From Candidatus Omnitrophota bacterium (GTDB lineage Bacteria; Omnitrophota; Gorgyraeia; Zapsychrales; Fredricksoniimonadaceae): DNA of 64,000 bases. Location of the stretch: the NCBI GenBank assembly GCA_015233675.1, contig JADFXH010000002.1:142794-206793 (forward strand), read 5' to 3'. Shown one piece after another: positions 1 to 24,100 of this stretch (its first letter is position 1; every line of letters begins with the position of its first letter). The position numbers and the translations under genes are program-made. Under the pieces are notes generated by a model that saw only the letters and a list, made by a program, of their open reading frames with translations, was not told the DNA's origin and did not search any database.

Positions 1-2621
1 CTCAACTTCCCGATTTGGACATCTGGGGAGCCAATATTTACAGAGGGCAGAGCTTTGGCACTTTATTTAGTGATTACGCAGCCAAATCTAACAAGCCGTT
101 GTGGATTTCTGAATTTGGAGTGGATGCTTTTTCCACATCAACATCACCCGCGATCATCGCCGATGTTAATAATTGGCAGTTGCAGATGACGGATCCTGGT
201 ATCCTTATTCAGGAAGGATCTGCAGATCAAGCAACACAGTCTTCCTGGGATGGGGCGTTATGGAATGAGATAGTTAATAATTCACCTGTGACCATCGGCG
301 GATCAGTGATGGAATATTCGGATGAATGGTGGAAGCCTAATGAATGGATGTGTTCAGTTCCTAATCCTTATAATGACCCTGCTATTCAGGCCGAGAACGT
401 GCAAAGTGTTGCGTATTGTATTTCCACACATAGTAATTTTGGTATTTATCCTTATCCCCCTGCTCCCGATGATTTTTCGAACGAACAGTGGTTTGGGATG
501 ATGTCCATCAGTCAGAATCCTGTTGTGGGTGGTCCTGATATTATGACTCCCCGTACAATTTATCATGTTTTTCAAACGGATTGGCAGGCTAATCCCTGGC
601 CATATTTGACCTTAAACATTTCCGGTTCAGGCATGGGGAGCATTAAAAGTTCTATTTCTACATTTGGAGGAGGACTTAATTGTAAATTTTCTTCAGATTC
701 AAATACAGGCATTTGTCTGGCTCCTTTTACCAAAAACCAACAGATTACGTTAAGTTTTTCTTCTAGTAACAATTCTACAGTGACTAATTGGGGCGTAAGT
801 GGCTGCGCTAGCGGCAGCACCACTTGTAATATAACGCCGGACACTGATATTACCTTAAATGTTACAGTAACAGCTCCGCCTGCGCCAACGGTCAGTATAA
901 CGTCCCCCGGCAACGGCGCTTCTTATACAGCGCCGACCGGTATTACATTGACAGCAAAAGCGGCTGCTAGCGCTGTTAATACAACGATCGCCTCCGTCAC
1001 TTTTTACTATAATGGCTCAACTTTTATAAGTACGGTTATTAGTAGTCCTTATTCCTATTCTTGGAGTAATGTGCCTGCAGGAACTTACAATTTAACAGCG
1101 GTTGTGACAGACAGCAATGGATCTATGAGCGTTTCTTCGGCAGTTTTAGTGACAGTTAATCCGACACCGTTAGCGCCGATCATTACAACCCAACCGCAAA
1201 GCCAAACAGTAATAGCGCCGGCACCGGTAACGTTTACGGCGGCAGCGAACGGTGTTCCAGCTCCAACCTATCAATGGGAAGTAAGTACCAATGGCGGAAA
1301 CAGCTTTACGCCGATCAGCGGCGCGACGGGTGCGACGTATACGATAACATCAACAACAACGTCTCTTGGCGGGAATAAATATAAGGTTGTGGCAACGAAT
1401 GGAGTATCACCGGCGGCAACCAGTAGCGCGGCAACGTTAACGGTTAATCCGGCATCAGCAGCGCCGACGATTACAATTCAGCCGCTTAGCCAGACGGTGA
1501 CAGAGCCGGCTTCGGCAACGTTTAGTGTGGCTGCCAGTGGTGCTCCTGCGCCAACATATAGATGGCAGCAGATGGCCCCTGGTGCTAATATTTATACTAA
1601 TATAATAGGAGCAACAAGTTCTATTTTTACAACAACAGCAACAACAGTAGCTGATAGTGGAACAAAATATGAATGTGTGGTCGCCAATTCATTAGGCAGT
1701 GTAGCCAGCAGTGCGGCGACACTAATAGTCAATGCGCCACGTCCAACAGTAGAGATAATCAGTCCGGTCAATGGGGCCCGCATTGCAGGGGGCTTCAGGA
1801 TTACCATCAATGCCATTGCTTCAGAGGCGGGTGGAATTATTAGTAAGGTTGCTTTTTACAACGGTAAGAAATTATTAGGGACAGTGGCCAGAAGGCCATA
1901 TAATTATACTTGGTATAACGTGCCTGCTGGAGTGTACAATTTAACTGCAGTTGCGACAGACAGCGCCGCAGTGACGGCGACTTCCTCGGTGATTACGGTT
2001 GTAGTTGCGGCCATTTCCTATGTTGCGCCAACGGTCGATATAATATCCCCCAGCAACAATGCTACGTATATCCAACCAGCTAATATTACTTTGACGGCCA
2101 GTGCCAGTTCTCCAAATGGGATCCGCTATGTTAAATTTTATAATGCCTCAAAACTTATAGGGGTGGCTTTTGACAGGCCGTATACTTATACTTGGAATTC
2201 TGTAGATGAAGGCGTCTACAGTATAACGGCTGTCGCGATTGATAATACCGGGTTGCTTCAGACAACTTCTTCTGCGGTTAATGTAACAGTTTCTGCTTTG
2301 TCAACACCGGATGTTTCTATAGTAAGTCCGGTCAAGGGGGCTTATATTGGAGAATGGAACTCAAGCCTCACGATAACTGCCAACGCTTCATCATCCAAGG
2401 CGGCTATCATAAGCGTGGCTTTTTACGCAAGCAATCTGAAAGGCTCTAAAATATTGCTAGGTACAATAACCAATAGCCCATATACTTATACATGGAGGCA
2501 TGTGCCAGAGGGTATTTACTATTTAACAGCTGTTGCGACTGATAGCGCTGGAGCAAAGGCAACATCCGCGGCGGTCTTTATTATAAGCCGAGCATCTCAC
2601 GGAGCGGGAATTTTCCATTAA
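1..2621 (+). CDS. Secreted glycoside-hydrolase-like protein, 5' end cut by the window edge. It holds the tail of a clan GH-A-type catalytic domain followed by an Ig-like domain array
   Basis: The frame is open from nt 3 (QLPDLDIWG...), so the TTG at 15 is not the true start. LDIWGANIYRGQSFGTLFSDYAAKSNKPLWISEFGVDAF, GGSVMEYSDEWWKP and EQWFGMMSIS are near-identical to the full-length paralogue at 27425-29935. Downstream are four ~90-aa modules (P[TD]V.I.SP.NG...PY.Y.W..V..G.Y.LTAVATD) and two I-set-like modules (TQPQSQTV...PAPTYQW). Confidence 0.75.
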   Translation, partial: QLPDLDIWGANIYRGQSFGTLFSDYAAKSNKPLWISEFGVDAFSTSTSPAIIADVNNWQLQMTDPGILIQEGSADQATQSSWDGALWNEIVNNSPVTIGGSVMEYSDEWWKPNEWMCSVPNPYNDPAIQAENVQSVAYCISTHSNFGIYPYPPAPDDFSNEQWFGMMSISQNPVVGGPDIMTPRTIYHVFQTDWQANPWPYLTLNISGSGMGSIKSSISTFGGGLNCKFSSDSNTGICLAPFTKNQQITLSFSSSNNSTVTNWGVSGCASGSTTCNITPDTDITLNVTVTAPPAPTVSITSPGNGASYTAPTGITLTAKAAASAVNTTIASVTFYYNGSTFISTVISSPYSYSWSNVPAGTYNLTAVVTDSNGSMSVSSAVLVTVNPTPLAPIITTQPQSQTVIAPAPVTFTAAANGVPAPTYQWEVSTNGGNSFTPISGATGATYTITSTTTSLGGNKYKVVATNGVSPAATSSAATLTVNPASAAPTITIQPLSQTVTEPASATFSVAASGAPAPTYRWQQMAPGANIYTNIIGATSSIFTTTATTVADSGTKYECVVANSLGSVASSAATLIVNAPRPTVEIISPVNGARIAGGFRITINAIASEAGGIISKVAFYNGKKLLGTVARRPYNYTWYNVPAGVYNLTAVATDSAAVTATSSVITVVVAAISYVAPTVDIISPSNNATYIQPANITLTASASSPNGIRYVKFYNASKLIGVAFDRPYTYTWNSVDEGVYSITAVAIDNTGLLQTTSSAVNVTVSALSTPDVSIVSPVKGAYIGEWNSSLTITANASSSKAAIISVAFYASNLKGSKILLGTITNSPYTYTWRHVPEGIYYLTAVATDSAGAKATSAAVFIISRASHGAGIFH

Positions 2622-2738: not shown

Positions 2739-2766
2739 TTGCCAAAGCCCAGAAATATGTTATACT
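2739..2766 (+). promoter_or_regulatory. Candidate sigma70-type promoter (TTGCCA-16 nt-TATACT with a TGn extended -10) for the fibre locus
   Basis: ttgcca aagcccagaaatatgt tatact lies in a long AT-rich intergenic region about 150 nt upstream of the 2918 start. It shares the aaatatgttata/c core with the candidate promoter at 20706. Confidence 0.3.
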
Positions 2767-2917: not shown

Positions 2918-4285
2918 ATGTTAAGACGCCTAACTATTGTAATTTTATTTTCTTTGCTGGGCCTTACACGGGCCTGCTTTGCCTCTGTCAGCTTAAGTGT
3001 TAGTCCGGTTGACGGTAGTAACGGTTTGCGGTTTGAGAGAGTGCCTGTAGCCGGAGCGGAAAATAAAAAGGAAATCCATATCCGCGTGAGCTCAACAAAT
3101 GGGAATCGGTATCAGGTTTTTCAAAGAATTCTTGAGCCTATTGTAAATGAAAAAGGAGATGCTTTAAATTTGCAGGCCATTGTGACGCAGACTTTGCCTA
3201 ATTCTAATAGCGCGGGGAGCCTTTATTTGCAGAATTCGGACCATTTGACTATGGGGGATCAGTTGCTGTATTCTTCCAGCCAGAGCGGAGCGAGTGATTC
3301 TTTTATGATTGGGTATGCTTTAGACAATAATTTATTCAATACGAGCGGAAGTTTTAGGGGGAGGATTGTCTTTACTTTACGCGGCATAGGCAATTCTTCC
3401 AGTGACCAGGTGACCCTTGATGTTATGCTGGAAACTCCCTCAAGTTTGAAAATATCGGTTAAAGGGGCGCATAATCTAGACCGGATACATATAAAGAGTT
3501 CTGACACCAGCGATAAAACAGCGGATTTTATCAATGTGTCTTTTTCAGGGAATTCCGGTCAGGAAATACGGATATATCAGGAAACGGAAAACTTCCTTGA
3601 GAATCAAACGGATGAGGGGCTGGGAGTTGGGCTTTTGCAATTAGATGCTCAAGGTGAGGGTGAAGGATTACGTATTCAGGGATTGAGCTCATTTGGTTTC
3701 GGAAGAACGCTTATTTATTCCAGTAATAAAACGGAAGATAATTTTGTAATTTATTTTTTGGTTAACGCCGATCAAGCCCAAAATCAGGCAGCCGGCTCTT
3801 ACGACGGCAAGATCAAATATATAGTGGAAACAGCTCAGGGCCAAAAAGAATTCCCAATTAATGTGCATTGCGAAATACTGCCTGTATTTACCATGAACAT
3901 AACGGCACCTCCCGGGGGGGTGAATTTTGCGCATGTGATTGCTAACAATCCTCCTCAGAACAAAGAAGTGCTGATAACAGTATCATCCAATTTACATAAG
4001 TCTTACCAAGTCCTTCAGGGTCTTCAGACGGGTATGACTAATCAACAAGGAAAGGAGTTCAATAATAAATATTTCAATATTCAGGTTGAAATACCGTCAG
4101 GTCAAAAAGGCCGCACGGACTTTACGGAGTTTTCTCCCGTGCAAACTGGAGAATATCCTATTTTTACTTCCGACTCTTATGGAAGCGGGGCTAGCTTTAC
4201 AGTGGTATACCGCCTGCAGGGATATGCTCGCATGAGCCCGGGTGATTTTTCAGTACCGATTAGATTTTCGTTAAACCAAAAGTAA
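2918..4285 (+). CDS. Secreted three-domain protein, candidate multi-domain tip or adhesin subunit of a fibre locus
   Basis: AGGAGG RBS. Signal peptide MLRRLTIVILFSLLGLTRACFA. Three tandem ~140-aa repeats with matching motifs (IHIRVSSTNGNRYQVFQ / LITVSSNLHKSYQVLQ). Each repeat ends G-x-[FY]-x-x-x-I-x-[FY] (SGSFRGRIVFTL, AGSYDGKIKYIV, PGDFSVPIRFSL). Confidence 0.6.
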   Translation: MLRRLTIVILFSLLGLTRACFASVSLSVSPVDGSNGLRFERVPVAGAENKKEIHIRVSSTNGNRYQVFQRILEPIVNEKGDALNLQAIVTQTLPNSNSAGSLYLQNSDHLTMGDQLLYSSSQSGASDSFMIGYALDNNLFNTSGSFRGRIVFTLRGIGNSSSDQVTLDVMLETPSSLKISVKGAHNLDRIHIKSSDTSDKTADFINVSFSGNSGQEIRIYQETENFLENQTDEGLGVGLLQLDAQGEGEGLRIQGLSSFGFGRTLIYSSNKTEDNFVIYFLVNADQAQNQAAGSYDGKIKYIVETAQGQKEFPINVHCEILPVFTMNITAPPGGVNFAHVIANNPPQNKEVLITVSSNLHKSYQVLQGLQTGMTNQQGKEFNNKYFNIQVEIPSGQKGRTDFTEFSPVQTGEYPIFTSDSYGSGASFTVVYRLQGYARMSPGDFSVPIRFSLNQK

Positions 4286-4301
4286 CATTCAAAATGGAGG
4301 G

Positions 4302-4970
4302 ATGATCATGAAAACCAAATTGATTTTAATCTTAGGGGGGCTGCTCCTAGCCACCAATGCCGCAATTAGTTTAGCGGCGACGGTGACAACAACATTAACG
4401 GTGCAAGCCACTGTTCCGGCAGCAACCGGTTTGAGTTTAAGTATTACCCCTTACACGGGAAATGGCACTAAACTTACGACTTCCACAGTCACCACTACGG
4501 GTGTTTTGGATTTCGGTATTTTGACGTATAACCCAGCTACCGGCACCTATGGCGCCTCTAATACAACCCCTGGTTATTTTGCTATTGATATTGGCACAAC
4601 AGGTGGTGCAGGGACTCCAATTGTAGCGGTAACTTATGTGGAAGGGACTAATCTTAATGGTGCGTCTTCTCCTCTCGGTGGATTGGGCACTAAAACTACG
4701 GCCACGTTTTTCACAGAAACGTATACAGGCCCTACAACAAATCCCACAGAAGCGTTATCGTCTCTGGGGAAGAAAAGACTCATAGACTTAACCGGTACTG
4801 CTGGACAATTATCAACTATCCCCTCTGGTGCTTGGGAGAGGATTTATCTGGGGCTTTGGACCGGAAGCTCAACAGCATCACCTGCCGATCCGTCAAATGG
4901 TAAACCATTTACCAATGCCGATGCTGGCGGTCAGTATACTGGTACGCTGACTTTCACGTCAACGCTTTAA
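4302..4970 (+). CDS. Secreted Thr/Gly-rich protein, candidate major fibre (pilin-like) subunit
   Basis: GGAGG RBS; the ATG at 4308 has the better spacing, so the start may be 4308. Signal peptide ...LLLATNAAISLA. The mature N-terminus ATVTTTLTVQATVPAATGLSLSI is an alternating strand. The C-terminus GGQYTGTLTFTSTL is a pilin-like terminal strand. Confidence 0.55.
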   Translation: MIMKTKLILILGGLLLATNAAISLAATVTTTLTVQATVPAATGLSLSITPYTGNGTKLTTSTVTTTGVLDFGILTYNPATGTYGASNTTPGYFAIDIGTTGGAGTPIVAVTYVEGTNLNGASSPLGGLGTKTTATFFTETYTGPTTNPTEALSSLGKKRLIDLTGTAGQLSTIPSGAWERIYLGLWTGSSTASPADPSNGKPFTNADAGGQYTGTLTFTSTL

Positions 4971-5001
4971 GGGGGTTGGTAAATAGGTATTAAACAAATA
5001 C

Positions 5002-5054
5002 GTGTCATTGCGAGAAGAGGTTGCAACTTTGAAAAGCTCTTCTCGCAATGACAC
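5002..5054. repeat. Perfect 18-bp inverted repeat (gtgtcattgcgagaagag / ctcttctcgcaatgacac) with a 17-nt loop. It belongs to the GTCATTGCGAG palindromic repeat family and is a possible intra-operon hairpin
   Basis: The arms at 5002-5019 and 5037-5054 are exact reverse complements. The repeat lies between the subunit-like gene and the next gene. Confidence 0.8.
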
Positions 5055-5072
5055 AAACAGGAATTATTATTT

Positions 5073-5876
5073 ATGATTGTCAGAATAATTTTTTTATTTT
5101 TTTGTGCGTTGGGGATGCTTAACGCAACTGCTCAAGCTCAATTATTCCTTGAGCAGGCAAAAGTTTCTCTAGATGTCTCTGGCGGTGACCATCGCAATGG
5201 GTCTCTATTGATCCATAATACGTCTTCAGCTTCAGTGAATATCAGAGTCTACTGGGAGGATTTTAAGTATAAGCCGCCGTACGACGGCACCAAAGAATTT
5301 TTGCCGGCAGGGACAATGCCGGGCTCTGCAAGCCAATGGGTTGCTTTTTCTCCCCAGACGTTTTCCATACCTGCTTTCGGCCAGCAGAACATTGATTATA
5401 CGGTCAGTATCCCAAGCGAGATACAAGAGGGGCATTACGGGGTATTGTTTTTTGAATCCAGCAATCAAGCAGTCGAAGGCAAAGAGGTGGTTTCCATCGT
5501 CGAAAGGCTTGGTTGTTTGTTTTTTATTGAACCAAGCAATAAGGTAAAGAAAGCGGTTATACAAGATATTGGATTAAAGGCAAATAGCATTACTGTCAAT
5601 TTTGTCAACCATGGTAATGTTATTTTGATCCCACATACGACATACTATATTATGCAGGAAGGCGGGACGGTTAATCTTCGCGGAGAGGCTAAAAAGCTGT
5701 ATGTTCCGCCGGGCATAACGGCATCACTCGAGATACTTTTAAAAGAAAAGTTAAAGCAGGGACATTATACCTTAGTCCTAAATTCCGATTTGGAAGAGGG
5801 AGATGTGTTGGTTAAGGAAATAGGACTGGCCGTGGATGATTCCGGCCAATTGACAATAGTAAATTCGCAGGATTAA
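5073..5876 (+). CDS. Secreted two-domain beta-rich protein, candidate periplasmic Ig-like chaperone of the fibre locus
   Basis: Signal peptide MIVRIIFLFFCALGMLNATAQA. Its size (~245 aa mature), two beta-rich halves and pattern (SLLIHNTSSASVNIRVYWED ... FSPQTFSIPAFGQQNIDYTVSIP) recall PapD-type/MSP-fold chaperones. I did not see the diagnostic PapD residues. Confidence 0.4.
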   Translation: MIVRIIFLFFCALGMLNATAQAQLFLEQAKVSLDVSGGDHRNGSLLIHNTSSASVNIRVYWEDFKYKPPYDGTKEFLPAGTMPGSASQWVAFSPQTFSIPAFGQQNIDYTVSIPSEIQEGHYGVLFFESSNQAVEGKEVVSIVERLGCLFFIEPSNKVKKAVIQDIGLKANSITVNFVNHGNVILIPHTTYYIMQEGGTVNLRGEAKKLYVPPGITASLEILLKEKLKQGHYTLVLNSDLEEGDVLVKEIGLAVDDSGQLTIVNSQD

Positions 5877-5913
5877 ACCATGCGTACCCCCATAACGCAT
5901 GAGTTAATTTTAT

Positions 5914-8900
5914 ATGAGAAAAAGATATTTAATATGGGGATTTGGTTTAGTTTTTATATCAGCTTTTGCTTTTTCCGCATTGGCTGACCAATCCATTGGC
6001 TATCAGCAATATTTTAAAGAAGGCGTCAAGGCTTTTCATGAACACGATGATGCCAAAGCCCTTCGTTGCTTTAAAATAGCCCAAATTTATGATCCTTCCG
6101 ATGAACAACTTAATAAATACATTCGTATATTAGAGAAAAAAGCGGTGACTTTTGAGCCGTCCCCATCAGAATTGTCTCCTGAGGAGTCGATAGGCTTCAA
6201 ATATTATTTAAGCCAAGGTATTGAGGCCTTCCAGAAACACGATAATAAAAAGGCGGCTTATTATTTTAATATTGCCATCATTTTTGATCCTGATTCCAAG
6301 GAAGCTGACCAATATTTGGAAACTTTAGGACAATCTGTTCGGCAAGTCGTCATCCCTCAAGCTCAGCCGTTACTGCCACTCCCATCGCAACATGAAGAAG
6401 CTATATCCCAGACATTTCCGTCAGTCCAACCGCGACAGGAAGAAGTTATTCCCCAACCCGTGCCGACAGTGCCGCAGCAACAGGAAGCAGTTATGCCTTC
6501 TCAGTTATTAGCGCCGGTACAACCGCAACAGGTAAGAGCAATGCCTCAGCCGCCTTCAGTTAAATCTCAAGGCGCCATTTACATTCCGGCTTCTAGCGCG
6601 AAAATGCCTATTACTGAAATTTCACTTGCACAGATAAGTAATAACGGCCAGCTTAATCCGAAACTGCAAATTGCATACCATTCGTCAGTTATCATCCAAG
6701 GCAAGGATATACAAAGATTTTTAATAGTGGATGAGGGTTATATCGGTGTGAGAATAATTGATAATGATCACTTGGAGATTGATGCGTTAACAATTGGGAC
6801 TACCTTCCTTCATATTTGGGATTCTTTTGGGCGGCATTCTCTTTATGTGCAAGTCGTTTTCCCTAAAATTGTTTCCTCCGGATCTTCTCAAGAGATGAAT
6901 GGGGTCCAACACTCACAGCCGTTTAGAGCTACTTATACAAATGACTGGGATACTTATTATACAGGGAAAAACATTCCTCATCTTAAACGTCAAAACTATA
7001 GTTTTAACCAAACCCTGGCTGTTTATGGGGAAACCCCGTACGGGTTTTTTGATGCTTCCGGAAGTTATACTGATTATGATGCATTTTCTGAGTTTGACAC
7101 ATATACGATAGGATTGAGTCAAATACCTCTTGACGGCACAAGCAATTTTAATTTGCGCGGTTTTGACGCTTCAAGATATTTATCCCCATTGACAATGCCA
7201 ACAACACGCTTAAGAGGAGTTTTTGCGGATGTCGATCTCTTGGGGGACACTTTAGGTTTATCCGTCAGCCATGGGCAGGAGCAAACACCCCTGGGGTTTA
7301 TTACTTTGGGGAACCAAGCTCAATTCAATAATTCTTATATAGATGCTGCTAAACTAACTCTTTTTCCTAAAAGTGCAAACGATCGTTATTCTTTTAATTT
7401 TGCCACGGGACATGGTTCGGACCGCCAACCGTATTTAACTGAGCATGTTTATTCTGTTGAAGGGCAGCACAAGTTTAATGATTTCCTCACATTGAATGGT
7501 GAAGAGGGTTATGACAGCAGCCATGATGCTTCGCTGGCGTCCTTGAAGTGGCAGAAGGGAACTTTTAAGACCGGCCTTAATTTCAGGAATATAGATAAGA
7601 ATTATTCTACTGTTTCAACTTTGCCCGCCTATCAAGGCGAGACAGGGGTGGCATGGACTACTGATTCTGATTTTAAAAGATTTACGGAAAACACATTTGT
7701 CGAAGCGTACAAGGACCGTCTTTATTATAATCCGGATTCTCCCGACACCTATAATTATGATGCCAATGGGCAGCTCCGTGTGAATATAACAGATAACTTC
7801 TGGAGCGATTCAGATTTTAATTATTTAAACACTTCGGGTGAGGCGTCTCCTATAAACAGTTTGGGATTTAATGAGCGCATTTCCAGGAGTTTCGGTATTT
7901 GGAATTCTTTTAAAGGCATTGTTTTTGGCGGAGTAGGCTACCAAAACAGTCATTCTCCGGATTCGGATACTTCCGACTATTCCCGCGAGGACGTGATTAC
8001 CGGCATTCAACTGCCTTTGACCAGCCATATATCTTCTTTTGCTAATTATGAATATGACTGGCTCCATCAGCCTCATTCTAACGGTAATTCCAATCCTGGC
8101 GTCATAAACACGGGGCTTGAATATCAAAAGCAAGTTAACTCAAAAATTTCTTTTAATTCTCAAATAAGTTTTCATGATGAGTTGGCAGTAAAACCAGGGA
8201 GTAACAGTTTTCTTTCCGGGGAAGAGAGCGTGATTATTACTTCCGGTTTTAATTATAACCCCGTTCCGGACGTGAATATTTTTGCTGATGGCAACGTAAG
8301 TAAAGTTTTATCTCATACGGGTAATCCGTCCTATGATGATTTTGAGGTCCATGTGGGGATGCGTATTACTTTTGGAGGCTCGACGTATTGGGATCCTCTG
8401 GGGACCGTAACGGGTATTGTGTTTAAAGACAGGGTGGGCAACGGTAAATTTGTTTCAGGGGACGAGGGAATTGCAGGAGTTAAAGTGAAGGTTGGAGATA
8501 AAGTAACTGTTACAGGTAAAGATGGCCGTTATCGGATTCAAATACGAGCTAAAGGGGCAGATGTGGTCCCTGTATTGGATACTATTCCGGGCGGTCTCAT
8601 ATTTTCAACCCCGCAAACTTTGAATGTCAGGGTTAAACAAGGCCGTGAGGCAAAAGCTGATTTCGGTTTGATCAGTCAGACGGGCATTTATGGTTTAGTC
8701 TTTGTCAATAAGAATGGTAACGGTGTTCCGAATGAAGGTGATAGGTTCATCGGTAAGGTGAAGGTGATTTTGGACGGTAAGACCATCCAGGTAAGCGATT
8801 CTCACGGGGCATTTTATTTCAGGAAAGTATCTCCGGGACAACATACGATTTCTATTGATATCAACACCCTTGCGATTAATATGGTGCCGACCGTGAAACT

Positions 8901-8991
8901 GCAGAACAAAATAGATGTCCCTGAGGGCGTTAATTACATGTTTAATATTCCCGTACAGATCAAGCAAGCAGAAGGCGAAGAGAATCAATAA
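5914..8991 (+). CDS. Large outer-membrane protein. Order: TPR-like repeats, P/Q-rich linker, secretin-type pilus N-domain-like segment, beta-barrel-like region, two CarboxypepD_reg/Cna-B-like C-terminal domains
   Basis: Signal peptide. Two TPR-like units (YQQYFKEGVKAFHEHDDAKALRCFKIAQIYDP; FKYYLSQGIEAFQKHDNKKAAYYFNIAIIFDP). PQ-rich tract at nt ~6345-6570. RFLIVDEGYIGVRIIDNDHLEIDALTIGTTFLHIWDSFGRHSLYVQVV (nt ~6661-6866) resembles the CpaC/RcpA N-terminal pilus domain. About 500 aa are rich in aromatic-x-aromatic beta-strand signatures. GVKVKVGDKVTVTGKDGRYRIQ and GKVKVILDGKTIQVSDSHGAFYFRKVSPGQHTI are typical of CarboxypepD_reg-like folds. Confidence 0.6.
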   Translation: MRKRYLIWGFGLVFISAFAFSALADQSIGYQQYFKEGVKAFHEHDDAKALRCFKIAQIYDPSDEQLNKYIRILEKKAVTFEPSPSELSPEESIGFKYYLSQGIEAFQKHDNKKAAYYFNIAIIFDPDSKEADQYLETLGQSVRQVVIPQAQPLLPLPSQHEEAISQTFPSVQPRQEEVIPQPVPTVPQQQEAVMPSQLLAPVQPQQVRAMPQPPSVKSQGAIYIPASSAKMPITEISLAQISNNGQLNPKLQIAYHSSVIIQGKDIQRFLIVDEGYIGVRIIDNDHLEIDALTIGTTFLHIWDSFGRHSLYVQVVFPKIVSSGSSQEMNGVQHSQPFRATYTNDWDTYYTGKNIPHLKRQNYSFNQTLAVYGETPYGFFDASGSYTDYDAFSEFDTYTIGLSQIPLDGTSNFNLRGFDASRYLSPLTMPTTRLRGVFADVDLLGDTLGLSVSHGQEQTPLGFITLGNQAQFNNSYIDAAKLTLFPKSANDRYSFNFATGHGSDRQPYLTEHVYSVEGQHKFNDFLTLNGEEGYDSSHDASLASLKWQKGTFKTGLNFRNIDKNYSTVSTLPAYQGETGVAWTTDSDFKRFTENTFVEAYKDRLYYNPDSPDTYNYDANGQLRVNITDNFWSDSDFNYLNTSGEASPINSLGFNERISRSFGIWNSFKGIVFGGVGYQNSHSPDSDTSDYSREDVITGIQLPLTSHISSFANYEYDWLHQPHSNGNSNPGVINTGLEYQKQVNSKISFNSQISFHDELAVKPGSNSFLSGEESVIITSGFNYNPVPDVNIFADGNVSKVLSHTGNPSYDDFEVHVGMRITFGGSTYWDPLGTVTGIVFKDRVGNGKFVSGDEGIAGVKVKVGDKVTVTGKDGRYRIQIRAKGADVVPVLDTIPGGLIFSTPQTLNVRVKQGREAKADFGLISQTGIYGLVFVNKNGNGVPNEGDRFIGKVKVILDGKTIQVSDSHGAFYFRKVSPGQHTISIDINTLAINMVPTVKLQNKIDVPEGVNYMFNIPVQIKQAEGEENQ

Positions 8992-8999
8992 AGCTTGTA

Positions 9000-9239
9000 T
9001 CAGGGCACCACTATAGAAGTAACCCTTATGCTTTGATTATTCCTGATCACAGTGTCTGTTTGGATTGATTGATTAGGGTTGTTTGTAAATGGAGTCCCAC
9101 CGAGACTCGTGCCCATGACATGTTCCGGTATGGTGACAGAGACCCGCAATGAAACGCTTCCGGGTATTCGGCAAAATCCCGGTTCAGTTTGTATGAAGAG
9201 AAAGATTATTAGAGCGAGCAGGAAGAAAAGTTTAAGCAT
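9000..9239 (-). CDS. Small secreted beta-strand protein (79 aa), convergent with the fibre locus
   Basis: The ATG at 9239 is preceded by AAAGGAGGG, so the longer 9299 start in the ORF track is unlikely. N-terminal hydrophobic signal MLKLFFLLALIIFLFIQ. The mature part starts SVSLRVSVTIPE, like the starts of the 455-aa and 222-aa proteins. Confidence 0.4.
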   Translation of the reverse strand: MLKLFFLLALIIFLFIQTEPGFCRIPGSVSLRVSVTIPEHVMGTSLGGTPFTNNPNQSIQTDTVIRNNQSIRVTSIVVP

Positions 9240-9472
9240 TCCGCCCTCCTTTGTTGAGAGTTTGAACGTCTCGAAAAAGAGGACGAAATGCTTATTCACG
9301 AAACCACGATGAATATAAGGTCACGGCAACCAGACAGCCCTGCTTATCCCCAGATAAGGTTAGGCTCACGGCTTTGCGTCCTACTTTTTCAAGTAGTTTG
9401 CCTTTTTCGAGTTTTTAAAGAGCGTACTTCTAAAACCTAATTAAAATATAACATATATTTTCAGCCTTTGCC

Positions 9473-9944: not shown

Positions 9945-10472
9945 ATGCAGAAACAGGGTTTTACGATTATTGAGCTGGTGATTGTTATTTCAGTGCTGGT
10001 GATTTTGATAGGCATTGCAATTCCCCGTATGAAGGGCATGCAGGATGCTGCATACATAGCTAAAGTCAAACACGAGTTGGCAACACTGCAGTCCGCTGTT
10101 GAGTCGTATTATGCGTTTTCTACGCCGCATACTTATCCTAATTCTAGTGCTGGCTATATGGCACAACCTGCTTTGATTAATGCATCACCACAAATAATTT
10201 CTACTTATCTCTATGACCCTTTTTGTTCTTCTTCAGTAAATTCTTGTTCAGGGCATTATCAGGAATACGGATATATAGGGCCAGACAATATTGGCGGCGC
10301 ACAATATTATGTTATTTGGTCAGTAGGGCCAGCAGCCCAACCGTCTTCTATGTGTGGCTTATATTCTGATGGTAGTGTAGCTTTATATAATGGTCCAAGC
10401 GGCCCCCCCACTTTATGCACTGCCGGTTCGCCCGGATGTCCCATTTGTGTTACTAATGGGAAAGGGTGCTAG
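9945..10472 (+). CDS. Type IV pilin / T2SS pseudopilin-like protein with a prepilin N-terminal methylation motif and a Cys-rich C-terminal domain
   Basis: MQKQGFTIIELVIVISVLVILIGIAIP is a class III signal (G|FTxxE plus a hydrophobic helix). The C-terminal half has 8 Cys. Confidence 0.85.
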   Translation: MQKQGFTIIELVIVISVLVILIGIAIPRMKGMQDAAYIAKVKHELATLQSAVESYYAFSTPHTYPNSSAGYMAQPALINASPQIISTYLYDPFCSSSVNSCSGHYQEYGYIGPDNIGGAQYYVIWSVGPAAQPSSMCGLYSDGSVALYNGPSGPPTLCTAGSPGCPICVTNGKGC

Positions 10473-10491: not shown

Positions 10492-11958
10492 ATGAATATT
10501 AAGATACAAACACCATTGAAACTGTCTGTCCATAAAACAAAGATTGTTTGTACAATCGGACCGTCGTCGAGTTCTCCCTCCAGACTTGCGGGGATGATTG
10601 AAAGCGGGATGAGCGTGGCTCGCCTTAATTTTTCGCATGGGGATTTTAAGGAGCATGCGAAGAATATCCGTAATATTCGTATGGCCGCCTCTAAAGCCCG
10701 ACGCATGGTCAGCGTCATCATAGACCTTCCCGGTGTTAAAATACGTATAGGCCTCCTTCAAAATGAGTCTGTTATGCTTAAAAAAGGAGCAGGAGTAGTG
10801 CTTACAACAAGGGATGTTGCCGGCACACAGGCGCTTATTCCTGTTGAATATAAAAAGCTTCCTAAAAGCGTTTCAAGGGGAAATATTATTTTCCTTAATG
10901 ATGGGTTTATTCAGTTAAAAGTTGAGAAAGTTTCGGGCTGTGATATTTTTTGCAAGGTTTTAATAGGAGGGAAGCTCCGTTCTCATAAAGGGATTAATCT
11001 GCCCGGTGTGAAATTAAATATGGATCCCATCACAGACAGGGATTTGACAATAGTTGATTTTGGATTAAAGCACGGAGTTGATATTTTCGGGTTATCATTC
11101 GTTGAGAGCCCTAAGGATATTATTAAGGTGAGGGAATTTGCCAAAAAGAAAGGGCGTTCGGTTTATCTGGTGGCCAAGATCGAGCGCCGGGAAGCGATCG
11201 TGAATTTTGATGAGATCCTTAAAGTTGCGGACGCGGTCATGATCGCCCGTGGAGATCTTGGCGTGGAAATCCCCTTAGAAGAGGTGCCCGGCATTCAAAA
11301 ACGGCTTATTCAAAAAGCGAATATTATGGGACGGCCCGTTATAACCGCAACCCAAATGCTGGAGTCCATGACCCAAAATGTGCGTCCCACTCGCGCGGAA
11401 GTTAATGATGTGGCTAATGCCATTTTAGACGGGACAGATGCCGTCATGCTTTCGGAGGAAACAGCCATGGGGGATTTTCCCATCGAAACCGTGCGTATGA
11501 TGGCCAGAATTGCCCTGACCACTGAAGGTCAACGTGAAGAAGGGCAATTATCTGATAATGAAGAAATGCAGATCAATAATAAGGTGTCTTTAAGCCGTTC
11601 TCTGACGATCACTGATGTCACATCGTTAAATGCCGCTCGGGCTTCCCGGGAAATGGATGCCAGGTATATATTGACACCGACGGCCAGTGGGAATACTGCT
11701 CGTCGTGTTTCAAGATTCAAACCGCATTGTTGGGTGTTGGCTTTTAGCGCCCACTCTCAGGTTTGTGAATTCCTTAATTTTTCTTATGGGGTACAGCCAT
11801 TTATCCTAAGCAAGAAATTTACTCTTGATCCGCACAAGTTATTCAAAAATCTTTTAAATTGGCATCTCCTTAAAAAAGGCGACACCCTGATTTTGACCGA
11901 ACGCAGATTGTCTCTTCATCAGGGAGGGACGGATTCATTGGGGATAGTCACATTATAA
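10492..11958 (+). CDS. pyk: Pyruvate kinase
   Basis: KIVCTIGPSS, RLNFSHG, MIARGDLGVEIP and a C-terminal regulatory domain. I use the ATG at 10492 (MNIKIQ...) because the 10390 ORF start overlaps the pilin gene. Confidence 0.9.
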   Translation: MNIKIQTPLKLSVHKTKIVCTIGPSSSSPSRLAGMIESGMSVARLNFSHGDFKEHAKNIRNIRMAASKARRMVSVIIDLPGVKIRIGLLQNESVMLKKGAGVVLTTRDVAGTQALIPVEYKKLPKSVSRGNIIFLNDGFIQLKVEKVSGCDIFCKVLIGGKLRSHKGINLPGVKLNMDPITDRDLTIVDFGLKHGVDIFGLSFVESPKDIIKVREFAKKKGRSVYLVAKIERREAIVNFDEILKVADAVMIARGDLGVEIPLEEVPGIQKRLIQKANIMGRPVITATQMLESMTQNVRPTRAEVNDVANAILDGTDAVMLSEETAMGDFPIETVRMMARIALTTEGQREEGQLSDNEEMQINNKVSLSRSLTITDVTSLNAARASREMDARYILTPTASGNTARRVSRFKPHCWVLAFSAHSQVCEFLNFSYGVQPFILSKKFTLDPHKLFKNLLNWHLLKKGDTLILTERRLSLHQGGTDSLGIVTL

Positions 11959-13814
11959 TCAGGCTTTGCGTCCATGCGTTGATCAATCACTTGCTCGAAA
12001 TATGAAAACATGTGCTGGCGCACCTTGTCTTTAAGAGGCGAATTGTCCCATTGAAAATTCATCCGGTGCACGTTCCCGGAGAGGCTAAATTCAATTGGAA
12101 GCGTCCAAGCCCCATGGACCAGGCTTATGATTTCGCGGCCGACGAGAGATTCTTTGAGAAGCTTTTTAGAGAAGCGTACGGAAATCCGGCTTGAAACCAG
12201 GTCATCCGCATCAAGATTAAAAAACCCGTTTAAATCAAGATCATCCGAATGCAGTGTTAGTTTGTCCAGCATTTTTGATTGCCTGTCTATTTTAAAATGA
12301 CAGGATAAATTAGTATTAGGGGAATGGACCAAAGAAGGCATTTGTAATACTTTTGCCATCCATTTTTGGAAAGACGAAGTGTCAAAATTGCCGTCATGTA
12401 TTGCCATGTCACCTGTAAGCCCGGCATTTTTGAATGACTGAAACATGAAACTGCCGGATAAAAGACCGTGGCATCCCGTAAGGTAAGAAAATGTGCTGCT
12501 TAATAGGTTAATGTCTATCCCCTTGAAGCTGCCTTGACTTTTGATTTGCCACGGGAATGAAGCAGTATCCAGGAAAATCCTGCCCTGGCAATGTCCTGTG
12601 AGAATCCCGGAAGATAGAGTAATATTTTTCCGATAAGGTTTGGAATAATTAAGGCTGGCCCAAAGATCACTAAGAGAGATTTTATATTTATTGCCTTGGG
12701 CTGAAAAGATGCTTTGCATGTGTTGTATTCTTAATTTTAGAAAATCACCGTTGACGATCAGCGCTTTTAAATTTTCGAAATCTAAATGCACTTTTTGTAA
12801 AGAGGGGGGATGCCCCAAAACAGAAAGAAAATTAAGATCACTTTGCCCTGTAAGAAAAAGGCCTTGCAGGGTGTTTTGGGCATGAAAATTCAGGTTGATA
12901 CTTTCTAAAGGTTTTTGCGGATCAATATGCGGGGGGACCCTTCTATAAGTAATGTCGGCATCACATTGGAAAAGATTTTGTTTTAGACAATGCCCGGAGG
13001 CTTCAACCGCGTCCCCGTCAATTGAAAAAGATAATCCTTTAAGGATTATATCATTTCTTTCTATTTTTAAATGCCCGTCGATATCAAGGATATAGAATTT
13101 TTCATAAAAAATATACCCTTTCCAGTCGATATTACCTCCAGACAATTTGCCCCAAAGGTTTAAGGAGGAGTTGCCCTCTCTTAAAGTAAGTTTATCCAAA
13201 TCAAAACCGGAGTCACGGATGTTTCCATCGAGTTCATAATCAAACCTGTCTTTATCGGTCCAGAATCCGTGAGCGTTTAGGTGGGCCTGATCAAGACTAA
13301 AATCAGTTTTAAAGGCAATAGGATCTTCAGGGGATGGGCCTTTCAGGTAAATTTTTCCGTCAGGCACAAAAAGACGGATGTTCCATTCTGGCAGAGGTTT
13401 GATGCGTGTATATATTTTCTTGCCATGATGGGCCCAATAATTTTTCAGTACCGGATAATTGACTGACAGGTTAACCATGACGATGTAATTAACAGGAGCA
13501 GGTGATGAAAATAAAAGGGAAGGAAATTTCATAATTACCCTGGAGGCTTGCAACATAGGGGGGCTTTCTTCAGGATTAAGTATTTTAACGTTTTTAAAAA
13601 TAATGCAATTGGGGAAAAGGTAATGGGCTTCTCCAAAATATATTTTGGCCTGAAATTGCCGGGCGATCAAATTAGAGTAAGAAAGGGCATAATCAGGAAG
13701 CCAGCGGTTGATGCGGGAAGAAAAAACTGCTGCCATCGCGGAGATTATCAAAATGATAAGGATCACGTATTTCCATTTAAAAAGGCACCTCTGTAAATAG
13801 TTCGCCATTAACAT
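11919..13814 (-). CDS. Membrane-anchored large periplasmic protein, AsmA-like
   Basis: A single N-terminal TM (KYVILIILIISAMAAVFS) is followed by a long beta-rich region. The N-terminal pattern AKIYFGEAHYLFPNCIIFKNVKI resembles AsmA/DUF748-type proteins. The assignment is weak. Confidence 0.4.
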   Translation of the reverse strand: MLMANYLQRCLFKWKYVILIILIISAMAAVFSSRINRWLPDYALSYSNLIARQFQAKIYFGEAHYLFPNCIIFKNVKILNPEESPPMLQASRVIMKFPSLLFSSPAPVNYIVMVNLSVNYPVLKNYWAHHGKKIYTRIKPLPEWNIRLFVPDGKIYLKGPSPEDPIAFKTDFSLDQAHLNAHGFWTDKDRFDYELDGNIRDSGFDLDKLTLREGNSSLNLWGKLSGGNIDWKGYIFYEKFYILDIDGHLKIERNDIILKGLSFSIDGDAVEASGHCLKQNLFQCDADITYRRVPPHIDPQKPLESINLNFHAQNTLQGLFLTGQSDLNFLSVLGHPPSLQKVHLDFENLKALIVNGDFLKLRIQHMQSIFSAQGNKYKISLSDLWASLNYSKPYRKNITLSSGILTGHCQGRIFLDTASFPWQIKSQGSFKGIDINLLSSTFSYLTGCHGLLSGSFMFQSFKNAGLTGDMAIHDGNFDTSSFQKWMAKVLQMPSLVHSPNTNLSCHFKIDRQSKMLDKLTLHSDDLDLNGFFNLDADDLVSSRISVRFSKKLLKESLVGREIISLVHGAWTLPIEFSLSGNVHRMNFQWDNSPLKDKVRQHMFSYFEQVIDQRMDAKPDYNVTIPNESVPP

Positions 13815-14307
13815 AAAGTTCTACTTTGTTGATGTAAGAGACCAGTTTGTGTTTACGCTGAAAACCCGAAAGGAACTTAAAGGATTTTTTGTCATTAAAG
13901 ATAAACGTAAGCTGACGGAAAGAAGCCGCCTTGTTGTGGTATTCTTTTATGGATTCAGGCCGTTTTTGGATTTGGGCTATTTTATAGAGGTAAGCCAAAG
14001 CGATCAGGGCCTCTTGGTGGCGTGGGTAGGTGGCATAAAAACTTTTAAACTCATCAGAAGCCATTTGCAGATTGTTCTGTAAGAAATAATATTCTCCCTG
14101 TGCAAATTTTGCGGTTAGCGCATAACGGGAGTTGGGATAATCATCAAGGATGGTGCGAAAATTCATGAAGGCAAAATCATACTCTCCCTGTTTGGCGAGA
14201 CCAACAGCTTCTTTCCATTCAAGGTCCGCCTCCGAGGCTTTAACACAAGGTACACAAAAACAACCCTGCAACAACAATGAAAGAATAATAACGTACAGCT
14301 TCATCAA
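13777..14307 (-). CDS. TPR-repeat lipoprotein (BamD/YbgF-like)
   Basis: Signal peptide with lipobox-like LLQGC. Repeated ...DYPNSRYALTAKFAQGEYYF... / ...TYPRHQEALIALAYLY... motifs are typical of BamD/CpoB-type TPR proteins. Confidence 0.45.
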   Translation of the reverse strand: MMKLYVIILSLLLQGCFCVPCVKASEADLEWKEAVGLAKQGEYDFAFMNFRTILDDYPNSRYALTAKFAQGEYYFLQNNLQMASDEFKSFYATYPRHQEALIALAYLYKIAQIQKRPESIKEYHNKAASFRQLTFIFNDKKSFKFLSGFQRKHKLVSYINKVELYVNGELFTEVPF

Positions 14308-21146: not shown

Positions 21147-24100
21147 ATGTTTAAAAAGACTTTGAGTTTAATTGTTATTATTTGCTTTTTTTTAACTTCT
21201 TTAACACCTTTATCCAAGGCCCAAGCCGATTCTGTTTTAGGCTTACCGACACCCTGGACCATGGTTAATTTAAGCCCTGCGTATATGCCTGTCATGATTA
21301 AGGGCGTCAAGGTCCATACGGACAATCCACTTCTTTTTGATTTCATATTAGATACAGGCAAGTCAGGCCTCAAGATCGATTCTGCCGAATTTAAGACTGA
21401 ATCCCAAAAATTGATCAAATATTTTTTAGCCGCATTGACGATCAAGGAAGATGATCTTTGGGTCAACTTAAGTCCTTACGAGAAAGACCGCATGATCCCG
21501 CAAGAGCTAGGCCAAACAGAGATGGGCAGGGACATGCTGGCGCAGGATTACATCCTTAAACAATTGACCGCTTCTCTTATTTATCCTGAAAAAGAATTAG
21601 GAAAGAAATTTTGGGACAATGTATACACCAAAGCCCGGCAGATGTACGGGGCAACAAACATTCCGGTCAATACGTTTAATAAGGTATGGATTGTGGCTGA
21701 CAAAGCTAAAGTTTTGGAACGTAACAACACCGCTTATGTAGTAGGTTCTCATTTAAAAGTCATGCTGGAAGAAGATTATCTGGCATTGGAGAAATACCAG
21801 GGCCAATTAACCCAATTGCCAAGCGAGGCAGCTTTGAATGTGAAAGCATCCCAAGGAACAAACCGTTCGCCAAGCAACACATTAGCCAGCCAAATTGTCA
21901 AAGAAATCATCCTCCCTGAGCTGGAAAAAGAAGTCAACCAAGGCCAAAACTTTGCGACGTTGCGCCAGATGTTCTACTCCATGATTTTAGCTTCATGGTA
22001 CAAACTGGAGCTTAAAGAGTCGCTTCTCAACCAGGTGTATAGTAATAAAGGGAAGACCAGCGGTGTGTTATCTGATGATCCAGCTGTTAAGGAGAAGATC
22101 TATCAGCAATATTTGCAGGCCTACAAGAAGGGTGTGTTTAACTATATAAAGGAAGACCTGGACACGGTAAGCCAGCAACCTATGCCGCGCAAATATTTCT
22201 CAGGTGGGTTGGCAAAGAATTTAGGGATTAAAGATGCCATGGAAGTTGAGAGGGGGAGGCCAACTGCTGGTGATGACTTTTCGGTTGGCGGCGACATGGC
22301 CATGGCCACTGTACAGGTGGCGAAGTCCAAGGTGGAGAAGACGGCAGAAAGGTTCCTGAGCCCTACACTCAGCTTCCTCGAGGCGCGAAATATCATATCT
22401 AAATCTTTAGAGAAGATTGTTTCTGCTGGTAAAATGCCCGCTCAATTAGAAAATGAATTGCTCCAGTTTATTGCCCTGAAACCTGAATCACCGGAATTAA
22501 AGCAGTTTGTATTGGAAGTATTTGTTGATGCTTTCCATCAATATTATGGGTTTGAGCATAAGGGAAAAAATTTCCCAGAAGCGCAATTTGTCTATGGATT
22601 TGTTCACTCTTTAAATTCAGCGATTATTGGAATTGAGACCTTAGGGATGGCTCAGAGTGCTTGGGTTAGGTTAAAGAATAGTAAAAACAGGCGGACTAAT
22701 TACTATGTTCCATGGACAAGTGTATCTTCTGAGTTAGTTAGGACTACCATTAAAAGTTGTAAAAGGTTTCAAGTTCTTAAAGAACAATTTCGTCAATTCG
22801 CTGGCGAGTTACCAAAAGGAACACAAACATTTAGTTTTCGAAATTTTAGAATACCTAGAATGATAGAAGGTCATACGGATCCATTATTTCTTAGGGAAGC
22901 AGGTGAAGAATGGATAAAGCATTGGTTTATGCTTAATAAGCAGATGGGGGATAAAGAAGCAGAAGAGATGACTATGATCCTTCTTAATGGGGGGTCTATA
23001 GAGATTGTTGAAGAGGAGGGCAGTAGAAATACCGCTGCTGGTTTTAAATTAAACTTCAAAATTAAGATAGCCGACGCGGCGATGATGGTGAATGCAACAG
23101 ACGATACACAAAATATAACGATTAGGGGTGAAGGTGACCGGACATTAGGAACCTTTAAAGTAGCTGATTATAAAACAGCTTTGGCAACAGTTGAATCAAA
23201 TCTTGGGTCAACAAAAATAGTATCTATTTCGAAAACAGTAAAGATGGAGTTTTATCCGATAATGTTAGTTCTAGCCGATGATATTTCAGAGCCGATAAAA
23301 GAAATTATTAAAGTTTTATTCGGTGGGAAGGGGATGTCATTAACAACGGTTGATAAATATTTTGGCATTTATCATACAAATATACTTAACAGTCCATCAA
23401 ATTTAACCAAATTGGCTTTGGATATTCGGCGGCAGCTCGAAGAATATAAGGCAGATATTCCTAGCGCGGCGATGAAGGCAAGTGAAGCGGCGGCGGGGCA
23501 ATCTTCAGAGGAGGTATTAGTTTCGAAAAATTTCTTTATTGAATCGTGGAAGGGGGTAGAAACAAATAGATATCGCAGGGCCTATGATCTTATTTGGAGA
23601 GATACGGATTCTCCAAGAACGAGCCCGTTTGCAGGGAGAGTGTATATTGACAGATCCGGTGAGAATGCGTCAAAAATAAGCCTGGACTTAAATGGAGAAA
23701 ATTATGCAGCAGAGGTTTCCCGTAATATGCAGTTGATAAGCGGAGAAGATGCGTTGTATTTTTTACGGGATGCTGCGGTGGCGAAGAGAAGTCAGGTATT
23801 ATTAAATCCGAATGGACGACGTTTGGCTGAATTCATGAGAGATAAAATGGTTTACGGCAAGGCTCCTATCGTTTCTTTTTCGGCTCCTTTATCTATTGGC
23901 TCTGCGAGCTGGGGTATATTTAATGCAGGAGTAGGAATAGGATTTGATTGGATTGATATGGGTCGAGGCGCAAAAGAGCAGGTTTTTAATATGAAGGGAC
24001 AGGGGATAGGGGGGTATGAGAACCTCTGGACTCCGTCGGAAAGTGTGCAAGCAATCTCTTATGATCCGGTTGCGCAAACAGTGAAAGTCACGTTAAAAGG

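Follow-up and report, generated by a model that had tools for sequence, protein, structure and literature searches.

A conserved four-gene cassette in Omnitrophota that probably encodes a usher-like outer-membrane platform and resembles the chaperone-usher pathway

The stretch of DNA considered here (the window) comprises 64,000 nt from a Candidatus Omnitrophota bacterium (assembly GCA_015233675.1, contig JADFXH010000002.1, forward-strand positions 142,794 to 206,793). Close to its beginning is a four-gene cassette (2918-8991) encoding a secreted protein of three modules (455 aa), a small secreted subunit (222 aa), a chaperone-like protein (267 aa), and a protein of 1025 aa containing a large beta-barrel (Table 1). 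The barrel protein is probably the outer-membrane assembly and export platform of an Omnitrophota-specific, chaperone-usher-like system for surface fibers; it would be an analogue of ushers, and possibly a very distant homologue. Its closest likeness is to the ushers of E. coli, pores by which adhesive fibers are built, although its modules are not theirs. Taken as a whole, the cassette appears to encode a hitherto undescribed relative of the chaperone-usher pilus pathway that is specific to this phylum. This reading draws on the architecture of the barrel protein, its fold similarities, the conservation of the cassette, and the motifs of the subunits. A database entry identical to it, annotated as hypothetical (HQL12_02300), comes from a metagenome-assembled genome (MAG) of Candidatus Omnitrophica. 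A homology search returned 64 related clusters at 30-100% identity, so the protein is real and conserved.

Table 1. Features of the cassette, of its barrel protein, and of the adjoining genes, in positions of the window
Feature	Position (nt)	Strand	Remarks
Usher-like target gene	5914..8991	+	1025 aa plus stop
Target signal peptide	5914..5985	+	Residues 1-24; read from sequence
Two TPR-like three-helix units	5986..6342	+	Residues 25-143; tandem duplication; optional in family
Disordered Pro/Gln-rich tether	6343..6570	+	Residues 144-219
PF13629-type beta-sandwich N-domain	6661..6858	+	Residues 250-315; place of usher N-terminal domain
Predicted 26-strand outer-membrane beta-barrel	6925..8376	+	Residues 338-821; no inserted plug
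C-terminal beta-sandwich 1	8398..8676	+	Residues 829-921; SdrD_B/CarboxypepD_reg-type; place of usher C-terminal domain 1 (CTD1)
C-terminal beta-sandwich 2	8683..8961	+	Residues 924-1016; place of usher CTD2
455-aa secreted protein, three tandem homologous beta-rich modules	2918..4285	+	Proposed tip/adhesin-type subunit; without N-terminal extension
222-aa secreted small subunit	4302..4970	+	Proposed polymerizing subunit; 1-3 copies per cassette in relatives
267-aa periplasmic chaperone-like protein, two beta-sandwich domains	5073..5876	+	AlphaFold2 pLDDT 90.6; adjoins target gene upstream
Sigma-70-like promoter match	2739..2766	+	TTGCCA-16-TATACT; 10/12; extended TG; consensus match only
Small secreted protein, about 55 aa mature	9000..9236 (open reading frame 9000-9299)	-	Convergent; directly after usher-like gene
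868-aa protein rich in Big_7 and Ig domains	15-2621	+	Directly upstream of cassette
Type IV pilin-like gene	9945-10472	+	N_methyl motif; weak T2SSG; downstream of cassette

The target was modeled with AlphaFold2, with strands assigned by DSSP, and the model was searched against the PDB with Foldseek; family-wide Pfam tests were done on the target plus 41 members, with matches up to E 10 considered. Once the optional TPR units and the linker behind them are set aside, the model has the domain order of an usher: an N-domain, a barrel, and two beta-sandwiches. As in the FimD/PapC and CsuD ushers, a large single-chain barrel follows one periplasmic beta-rich domain, and the gene itself stands directly after one for a two-domain chaperone fold and near genes for small secreted subunits. 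An initial annotation of the region, made from the sequence without database searches, had judged the combination not to be that of classical ushers. This does not hold for the domain order or the neighboring chaperone-fold gene, nor does it hold for the fold: the first 13 Foldseek matches to the full model are all FimD/PapC (E 2e-19 to 2e-9). The top 11 are full-length FimD/PapC complexes (E 2e-19 to 2.5e-14, with 770-915 aligned columns), and isolated usher translocation domains are also among the 13; next come TonB-dependent receptors and porins, with E-values from 3e-9 to about 5e-7. In architecture and in fold the target matches ushers from end to end, whereas in sequence family it does not; as first proposed, it has no end-to-end sequence match to any characterized family.

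The large single-chain barrel postulated at the outset is borne out by the model, with 26 regular antiparallel strands and pLDDT > 90 in most 10-residue blocks. Turns on the side of the N-domain have a mean length of 3.7 aa, and loops on the opposite side one of 8.5 aa. In the 41 aligned members the barrel region measures 480-488 aa; a set of 182 near-complete members gives a median of 482 aa and a range of 436-493 aa. None of these 182 has a plug-size insertion in the barrel, and the longest inter-strand segment of the target model is 15 residues; with barrel length constant at about 482 aa across the set, there is no room for a plug. Neither Pfam, NCBIfam, nor a PDB profile search gives a match to the barrel, only the terminal domains being matched.

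In front of the barrel, residues 250-313 match PF13629 (T2SS-T3SS_pil_N), at the position where the initial annotation had placed a secretin-associated N-domain. The match is narrow in the target (E 3.9e-5, 23.7 bits, with a cut-off of 23), extends to 40 of the 41 members (best 6.6e-11), and is kept in remote ones; the domain has a constant length of 66-67 aa across the family. The label of a secretin N-domain stands as far as the Pfam family is concerned, but the domain is modeled as all-beta, with seven strands, and as a beta-sandwich is not the usual alpha/beta N0/N1 module. A PDB profile search gave a weak match (E 0.32) to the N-terminus of the Tad-type secretin 8jvb. The domain is indeed found without a secretin C-domain, PF00263 matching neither the target nor any of the 41 members. 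The PF13629 N-terminal beta-sandwich is thus common to the target and the Tad/Cpa secretins (RcpA/CpaC); the target differs from these in lacking the C-domain and N0/N1, and in forming a monomeric barrel rather than a multimeric channel. In the literature searched, PF13629 is mentioned in two papers only, both of them unrelated.

The two C-terminal modules, which had been called CarboxypepD_reg-like, are modeled as beta-sandwiches, with SdrD_B as their best Pfam label (two stretches, E 3e-8). In the target, CarboxypepD_reg and CarbopepD_reg_2 stay below threshold, but they match 39 and 26 of the 41 members, respectively. Most of the 182 family members have two such domains, and some have three. 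Majority-residue frequency is 0.69-0.71 in these domains vs. 0.65 in the barrel, the second of them (0.71) being the most conserved region; like the N-domain and the barrel, they are length-invariant within the family. Such high conservation at constant length is more in keeping with contacts between proteins in the periplasm than with display on the surface.

The N-terminal part of the protein is more variable. It begins with a signal peptide, MRKRYLIWGFGLVFISAFAFSALA before DQ, as initially annotated; this has no Cys, and the protein is therefore not a lipoprotein. Next are the two TPR-like units recognized earlier, a duplicated unit of ~50 aa with the pattern SIG(Y/F)..Y...G..AF..HD..KA...F.IA.I(Y/F)DP. 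Each is modeled as three helices (residues 26-75 and 93-137, pLDDT about 80-90). Pfam TPR_2 matches the target weakly (E 0.019) but is hit by 24 of the 41 family members (best 6.8e-6), and the TPR module is found in 128 of the 182 near-complete ones. The Pro/Gln-rich tract is likewise as first described, with 22% Q and 21% P in residues 144-219 vs. 6% and 5% in the protein as a whole; it is modeled as disordered (pLDDT < 50), and in relatives varies from 19 to 179 aa.

Other identities for the target were examined and rejected. It is not a secretin, since the required C-domain is absent and the model is a monomeric barrel. Nor is it a TonB-dependent receptor: the required plug is absent, neither PF07715 (plug) nor PF00593 matches the target or the 41 members, and the model has 26 strands where such receptors have 22, and is closer in fold to ushers. 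Both exclusions agree with the initial annotation. In TPR-porins of the PgaA/BcsC/Slam type the TPRs are far more numerous or the barrel has 14-18 strands, and proteins of this type do not stand out among the fold matches.

The 267-aa protein encoded immediately upstream is modeled in the boomerang arrangement of two Ig-like domains seen in solved pilus chaperones. By E-value, its best Foldseek matches are the WxLIP structures 9i1y and 9i25 of Enterococcus faecium (2e-11), one of which is bound to a “long WxL”; by TM-score, the best is CfaA (0.64, range 0.62-0.65; E 1e-9; root-mean-square deviation 5.4-5.7 Å). FimC, Caf1M, PapD, SafB, FaeE, DraB, CsuC, and EcpB are further matches, so that classical, alternate, and archaic pilus chaperones are all represented; the Foldseek probability is 1.00 for CfaA, FimC, Caf1M, PapD, CsuC, and EcpB. 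A PDB profile search ranks EcpB first, but with an E of 0.28, which is not significant. Independently, the JGI annotation names several homologues “P pilus assembly chaperone PapD.”

Conservation within the 267-aa family also recalls such chaperones. In the first strand, an invariant Lys (K30) occupies mature position 8. The final strand of domain 1 has an invariant Arg145, followed by alternating hydrophobic residues (L146, C148, F150, I152) and Pro154; Pro78, at the end of the fourth strand, is near-invariant, and in domain 2 Arg203 is invariant and Tyr232 near-invariant. A basic residue at mature position 8, and a basic residue with alternating hydrophobics in the last strand of domain 1, are apparent likenesses to the PapD-type chaperones (FimC, PapD, Caf1M, CfaA, EcpB, CsuC), and the two Ig-like domains are a further likeness. 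The conserved residues resemble the subunit anchors of PapD/FimC, CsuC, EcpB, and CfaA (PMC4654587), and are candidate equivalents of the residues that anchor the subunit carboxylate and of the donor G1 strand. The 267-aa protein is about 40-50 residues longer than typical chaperones, belongs like the other two upstream proteins to no Pfam or NCBIfam family, and, as discussed below, has no PapD family match.

The remaining two secreted proteins of the cassette are the proposed subunits. In an alignment of 45 copies, the small subunit has an N-terminal F-x-V-S-A-x-V-P, a G-x-S-I strand, L-x-F-G, and an invariant C-terminal G-x-Y-T-G-T-L-T-x-T. These may echo motifs of the spore-coat-protein-U/Csu pilins (V-S-A-T-V, L-x-F-G, G-x-Y-x-x-T-L-x-V-T), a resemblance that no search supported. 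Relatives of the small subunit were found in Omnitrophota only, all as “hypothetical protein,” and there is no Pfam (34 subunit members), NCBIfam, or PDB match to it. The 455-aa protein likewise has no sequence match in Pfam, NCBIfam, or the PDB. Its three modules are homologous to one another (hhalign probability 97.5-99.3%, E 5e-12 to 2e-20), and every one closes with G-x-[FY]-x-G-x-[IL]-x-[FY]; a C-terminal strand of the G-x-Y-x-G-x-L-x-F type is common to all subunit modules. A pilin nature for both proteins is suggested by these motifs.

The two differ at the N-terminus. The conserved N-terminal stretch of the small subunit, ~14 aa of alternating hydrophobic residues, is not found in the three-module protein, and by hhalign the mature N-terminus of the latter matches the small-subunit strand that follows this stretch. 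The match is weak (probability 61%, 20 columns) and does not establish kinship between the two subunits; because of this alignment, however, the small subunit appears to bear an N-terminal extension that the 455-aa protein lacks. Polymerizing subunits and tip adhesins of chaperone-usher systems differ in the same way, as in the pairs FimA/FimH and PapA/PapG.

Cassette composition is strictly kept in about 40 loci, at identities down to 26-30%; gene order varies slightly, and the flanking genes are unrelated. The four-gene set is present in essentially every locus of sufficient length among 49 species-level genomes, and on further contigs. Two genomes carry two cassettes each, at loci L014 and L023 (MAG MFD01476.bin.2.120) and at loci L007 and L015 (one MAG). 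In L014 (7013-10010) all cassette genes are fragmented, by frameshifts or assembly errors; the second copy, in L023, is intact. The gene for the 455-aa protein is in all complete cassettes except the variant L054 (4218-9667), which has short subunits instead: two single-module proteins of ~175 aa, one of them with an extra N-terminal “GLSISVGV.” This variant also encodes a 340-aa chaperone-like protein, and an 888-aa usher-like protein with three SdrD_B stretches and without TPR units or linker.

An exhaustive profile search with the N-domain and barrel together returned 366 representative clusters at E ≤ 1e-3; for 197 of them E is ≤ 1e-30. Among the 150 of these 366 that were listed, complete proteins have about 750-1230 residues, and ten remote family members that were scanned have the same domains as the target. 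All matches with a source name are from Omnitrophota/Omnitrophica. As to contig labels, some cassette loci are labeled “uncultured Planctomycetales,” and one, L018 (DYOU01000007.1), is a complete cassette labeled Candidatus Elulimicrobium sp., a genus placed in the Patescibacteria group by NCBI taxonomy. An outer-membrane barrel system on a contig with a Patescibacteria label suggests a label problem or mis-binning.

If the proteins work as their folds and motifs suggest, all four would be exported by Sec, signal peptides being seen in each sequence. The 267-aa protein, whose fold is modeled, would capture subunits by beta-strand complementation, and the chaperone-subunit complexes would dock on the PF13629-type N-domain and on the two C-terminal SdrD_B-type domains; these are the proposed docking sites because they occupy the positions of the usher N-terminal domain, CTD1, and CTD2, and because conservation and constancy of length are highest there. 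Subunits might then be joined by swapping of the conserved N-terminal strand of the small subunit, and the three-module protein, having no extension, would go first and form the tip; both of these steps are suggested by the motifs. Donor-strand complementation and exchange by the cassette proteins are predicted in this scheme from motifs and folds, by analogy with the known pathway. The fiber would leave through the 26-strand barrel. With no usher-type plug in this barrel, gating must differ. The tethered pair of TPR units could be an optional accessory that binds a periplasmic partner or the cell wall, which is speculative.

Several results weigh against this interpretation. At the sequence level, Usher (PF00577), PapC_N (PF13954), and PapC_C (PF13953) match none of the 41 family members, and hhalign of the family alignment to FimD of E. 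coli MG1655 gives a probability of 0.9%. PapD_N (PF00345) and PapD_C (PF02753) similarly match none of 28 members of the 267-aa family at E up to 10, hhalign of that family with FimC is negative, and for the subunits there is no match among pilin families or solved structures. At the structure level, the target has 26 strands where ushers have 24, a count that rests on a predicted model, and lacks the plug that ushers carry between strands 6 and 7. It departs from known ushers also in its PF13629-type N-domain, its SdrD_B/transthyretin-like C-domains, and its extra TPR pair on a Pro/Gln tether. TM-scores against ushers lie in a modest range (0.33-0.49, normalized to the target), Foldseek significance is inflated for beta-barrels, and it is uncertain how the domains are placed relative to one another (pTM of the model 0.57). 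The fold of the 267-aa protein, finally, is equally close to the Gram-positive WxLIP, which is not known to build polymers.

This last point leads to the strongest alternative, that the barrel is an export or anchoring pore for a non-polymeric surface complex. The cassette would then be a diderm counterpart of the Gram-positive WxL clusters, with a WxLIP-like escort serving a small and a large partner in a fixed adhesive complex. The best Foldseek E-values of the 267-aa protein are to WxLIP structures, and its family has weak, sub-threshold Pfam matches to WxLIP_PGBD (8 of 28 members) and WxLIP_HBD (5 of 28), and none to PapD. The gene logic is also that of the commonest WxL cluster of Firmicutes, with one WxLIP (DUF916 + DUF3324), one small, and one large WxL protein (PMC10599100). 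The TM-score, however, is higher to CfaA (0.64) than to WxLIP (0.43-0.47); the WxL domain of Pfam has no match in the 222-aa or the 455-aa protein, and the sequence of the 267-aa protein lacks the C-terminal membrane helix by which a WxLIP is anchored. The cassette further differs from WxL clusters in its diderm host and in the added outer-membrane barrel. The small subunit is present in up to three copies and its N-terminal stretch is strongly conserved, for which reason polymerizing subunits are the better fit, and a fixed complex of the WxL kind seems unlikely.

Three further possibilities are each very improbable. The barrel could be a specialized uptake channel or porin, with the secreted beta-rich neighbors as surface binding proteins, by analogy with SusC-type transporters that have CarboxypepD_reg domains. 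TonB-dependent receptors and substrate-specific porins are among the fold matches (3e-9 to about 5e-7), and CarboxypepD_reg-type domains occur also in SusC-like receptors. The usher matches nonetheless exceed these in significance by about ten orders of magnitude; the CarboxypepD_reg-like domains are found at the C-terminus instead of the N-terminus; plug and receptor domains are absent from both the model and the Pfam results; and the conserved partner has a chaperone fold rather than being SusD-like. Such an uptake role is regarded as highly improbable.

It is just as hard to credit the protein as a self-exporting adhesin of the inverse-autotransporter type, with its SdrD_B-like C-domains threaded through the barrel onto the surface. 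SdrD B-repeats are stalk domains of surface adhesins, and the order of a barrel followed by Ig-like domains is that of intimin and invasin. Domains on display would not be expected to be the most conserved and length-invariant ones, as they are here; 26 strands far exceed the 12 of type Ve barrels, and the conserved chaperone-like and subunit genes would be left without a role. The chance is similarly slight that the protein serves a type IV or Tad pilus machine as an accessory component in the outer membrane: outside the present family, PF13629 is known from secretins of the CpaC/RcpA type, there is a type IV pilin-like gene nearby (Table 1), and type IVa and Tad pili are commonly encoded in Omnitrophota (PMC10066038), but no secretin, ATPase, or platform genes are adjacent, the secretin C-domain is missing, and the pilin-like gene stands beside no other cassette locus.

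A bolder version of the chaperone-usher-like reading, to be taken as tentative and on balance rather doubtful, is that the cassette represents a fourth, so far unrecognized branch of strand-complementation fiber assembly confined to the Omnitrophota (PVC group). Its platform might have arisen on its own, by the joining of an N-domain as in Tad secretins, a 26-strand barrel without a plug, and domains of the SdrD_B type, and its chaperone might be an evolutionary bridge from the Gram-positive WxLIP to the PapD-like proteins of Proteobacteria. If there is such a branch, either usher-like platforms evolved repeatedly, or their principle is much more ancient and adaptable than one would expect from the known classical, alternate, and archaic classes; and there is an unreported adhesive organelle in ultra-small, possibly host-dependent bacteria.

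For the Omnitrophota, which are suspected of host-dependent or predatory lifestyles, the cassette would if correctly interpreted be a third candidate attachment organelle. The phylum is outside the reported range of chaperone-usher systems, which have been described only from Proteobacteria, Cyanobacteria, and Deinococcus-Thermus (PMC4654587). In the main genomic survey of the phylum, the attachment factors discussed are type IVa and Tad pili and giant open reading frames only, with no usher or fimbriae (PMC10066038), and among the literature searched there was no paper relevantly joining chaperone-usher systems with Omnitrophota or Omnitrophica. A working hypothesis would be at hand for four families of “hypothetical proteins,” of which that of the barrel by itself makes up the 366 representative clusters. 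A plug-less usher-like platform with two extra strands poses the question of how a large monomeric pore is gated, and the 267-aa protein, being similar to PapD-type chaperones and to WxLIP alike, provides a link between surface assembly in monoderms and in diderms that can be put to the test.

Some of the genes around the cassette may be connected with it. The promoter match is in a 297-bp gap upstream of the first cassette gene. The small secreted protein encoded convergently after the target has homologues at the same position in 19 loci, and no family match; its N-terminal “TVTFQLSVTIPEHV” is similar to the motif that the small subunits have at their N-terminus, and its C-terminal sequence reads “RNNxSIxLTSIVVP.” From its position, it is possible that it belongs to the system as an accessory part, perhaps a cap, terminator, or gating component. 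The 868-aa Big_7/Ig protein upstream is possibly an associated adhesin, outside the conserved core; a relative of it (44% identity, 1146 aa) precedes the cassette in locus L034, and an 835-aa protein without a Pfam match does so in L055. The type IV pilin-like gene downstream is beside the cassette in no other locus, and is therefore probably unrelated.

The remainder of the window is ordinary chromosome, including genes for SMC, DnaG, RpoD, a Kdp system, pyruvate kinase, and a P-type ATPase. On the reverse strand, a 176-aa TPR protein (13777-14307) with weak YfiO (BamD-like) and Slam-TPR matches overlaps the end of a 631-aa open reading frame without a family (11919-13814). On the forward strand, a 2020-aa open reading frame (21147-27209) has URO-D (uroporphyrinogen decarboxylase) as its sole Pfam match, at residues 1176-1424, an unusual setting for this fold.

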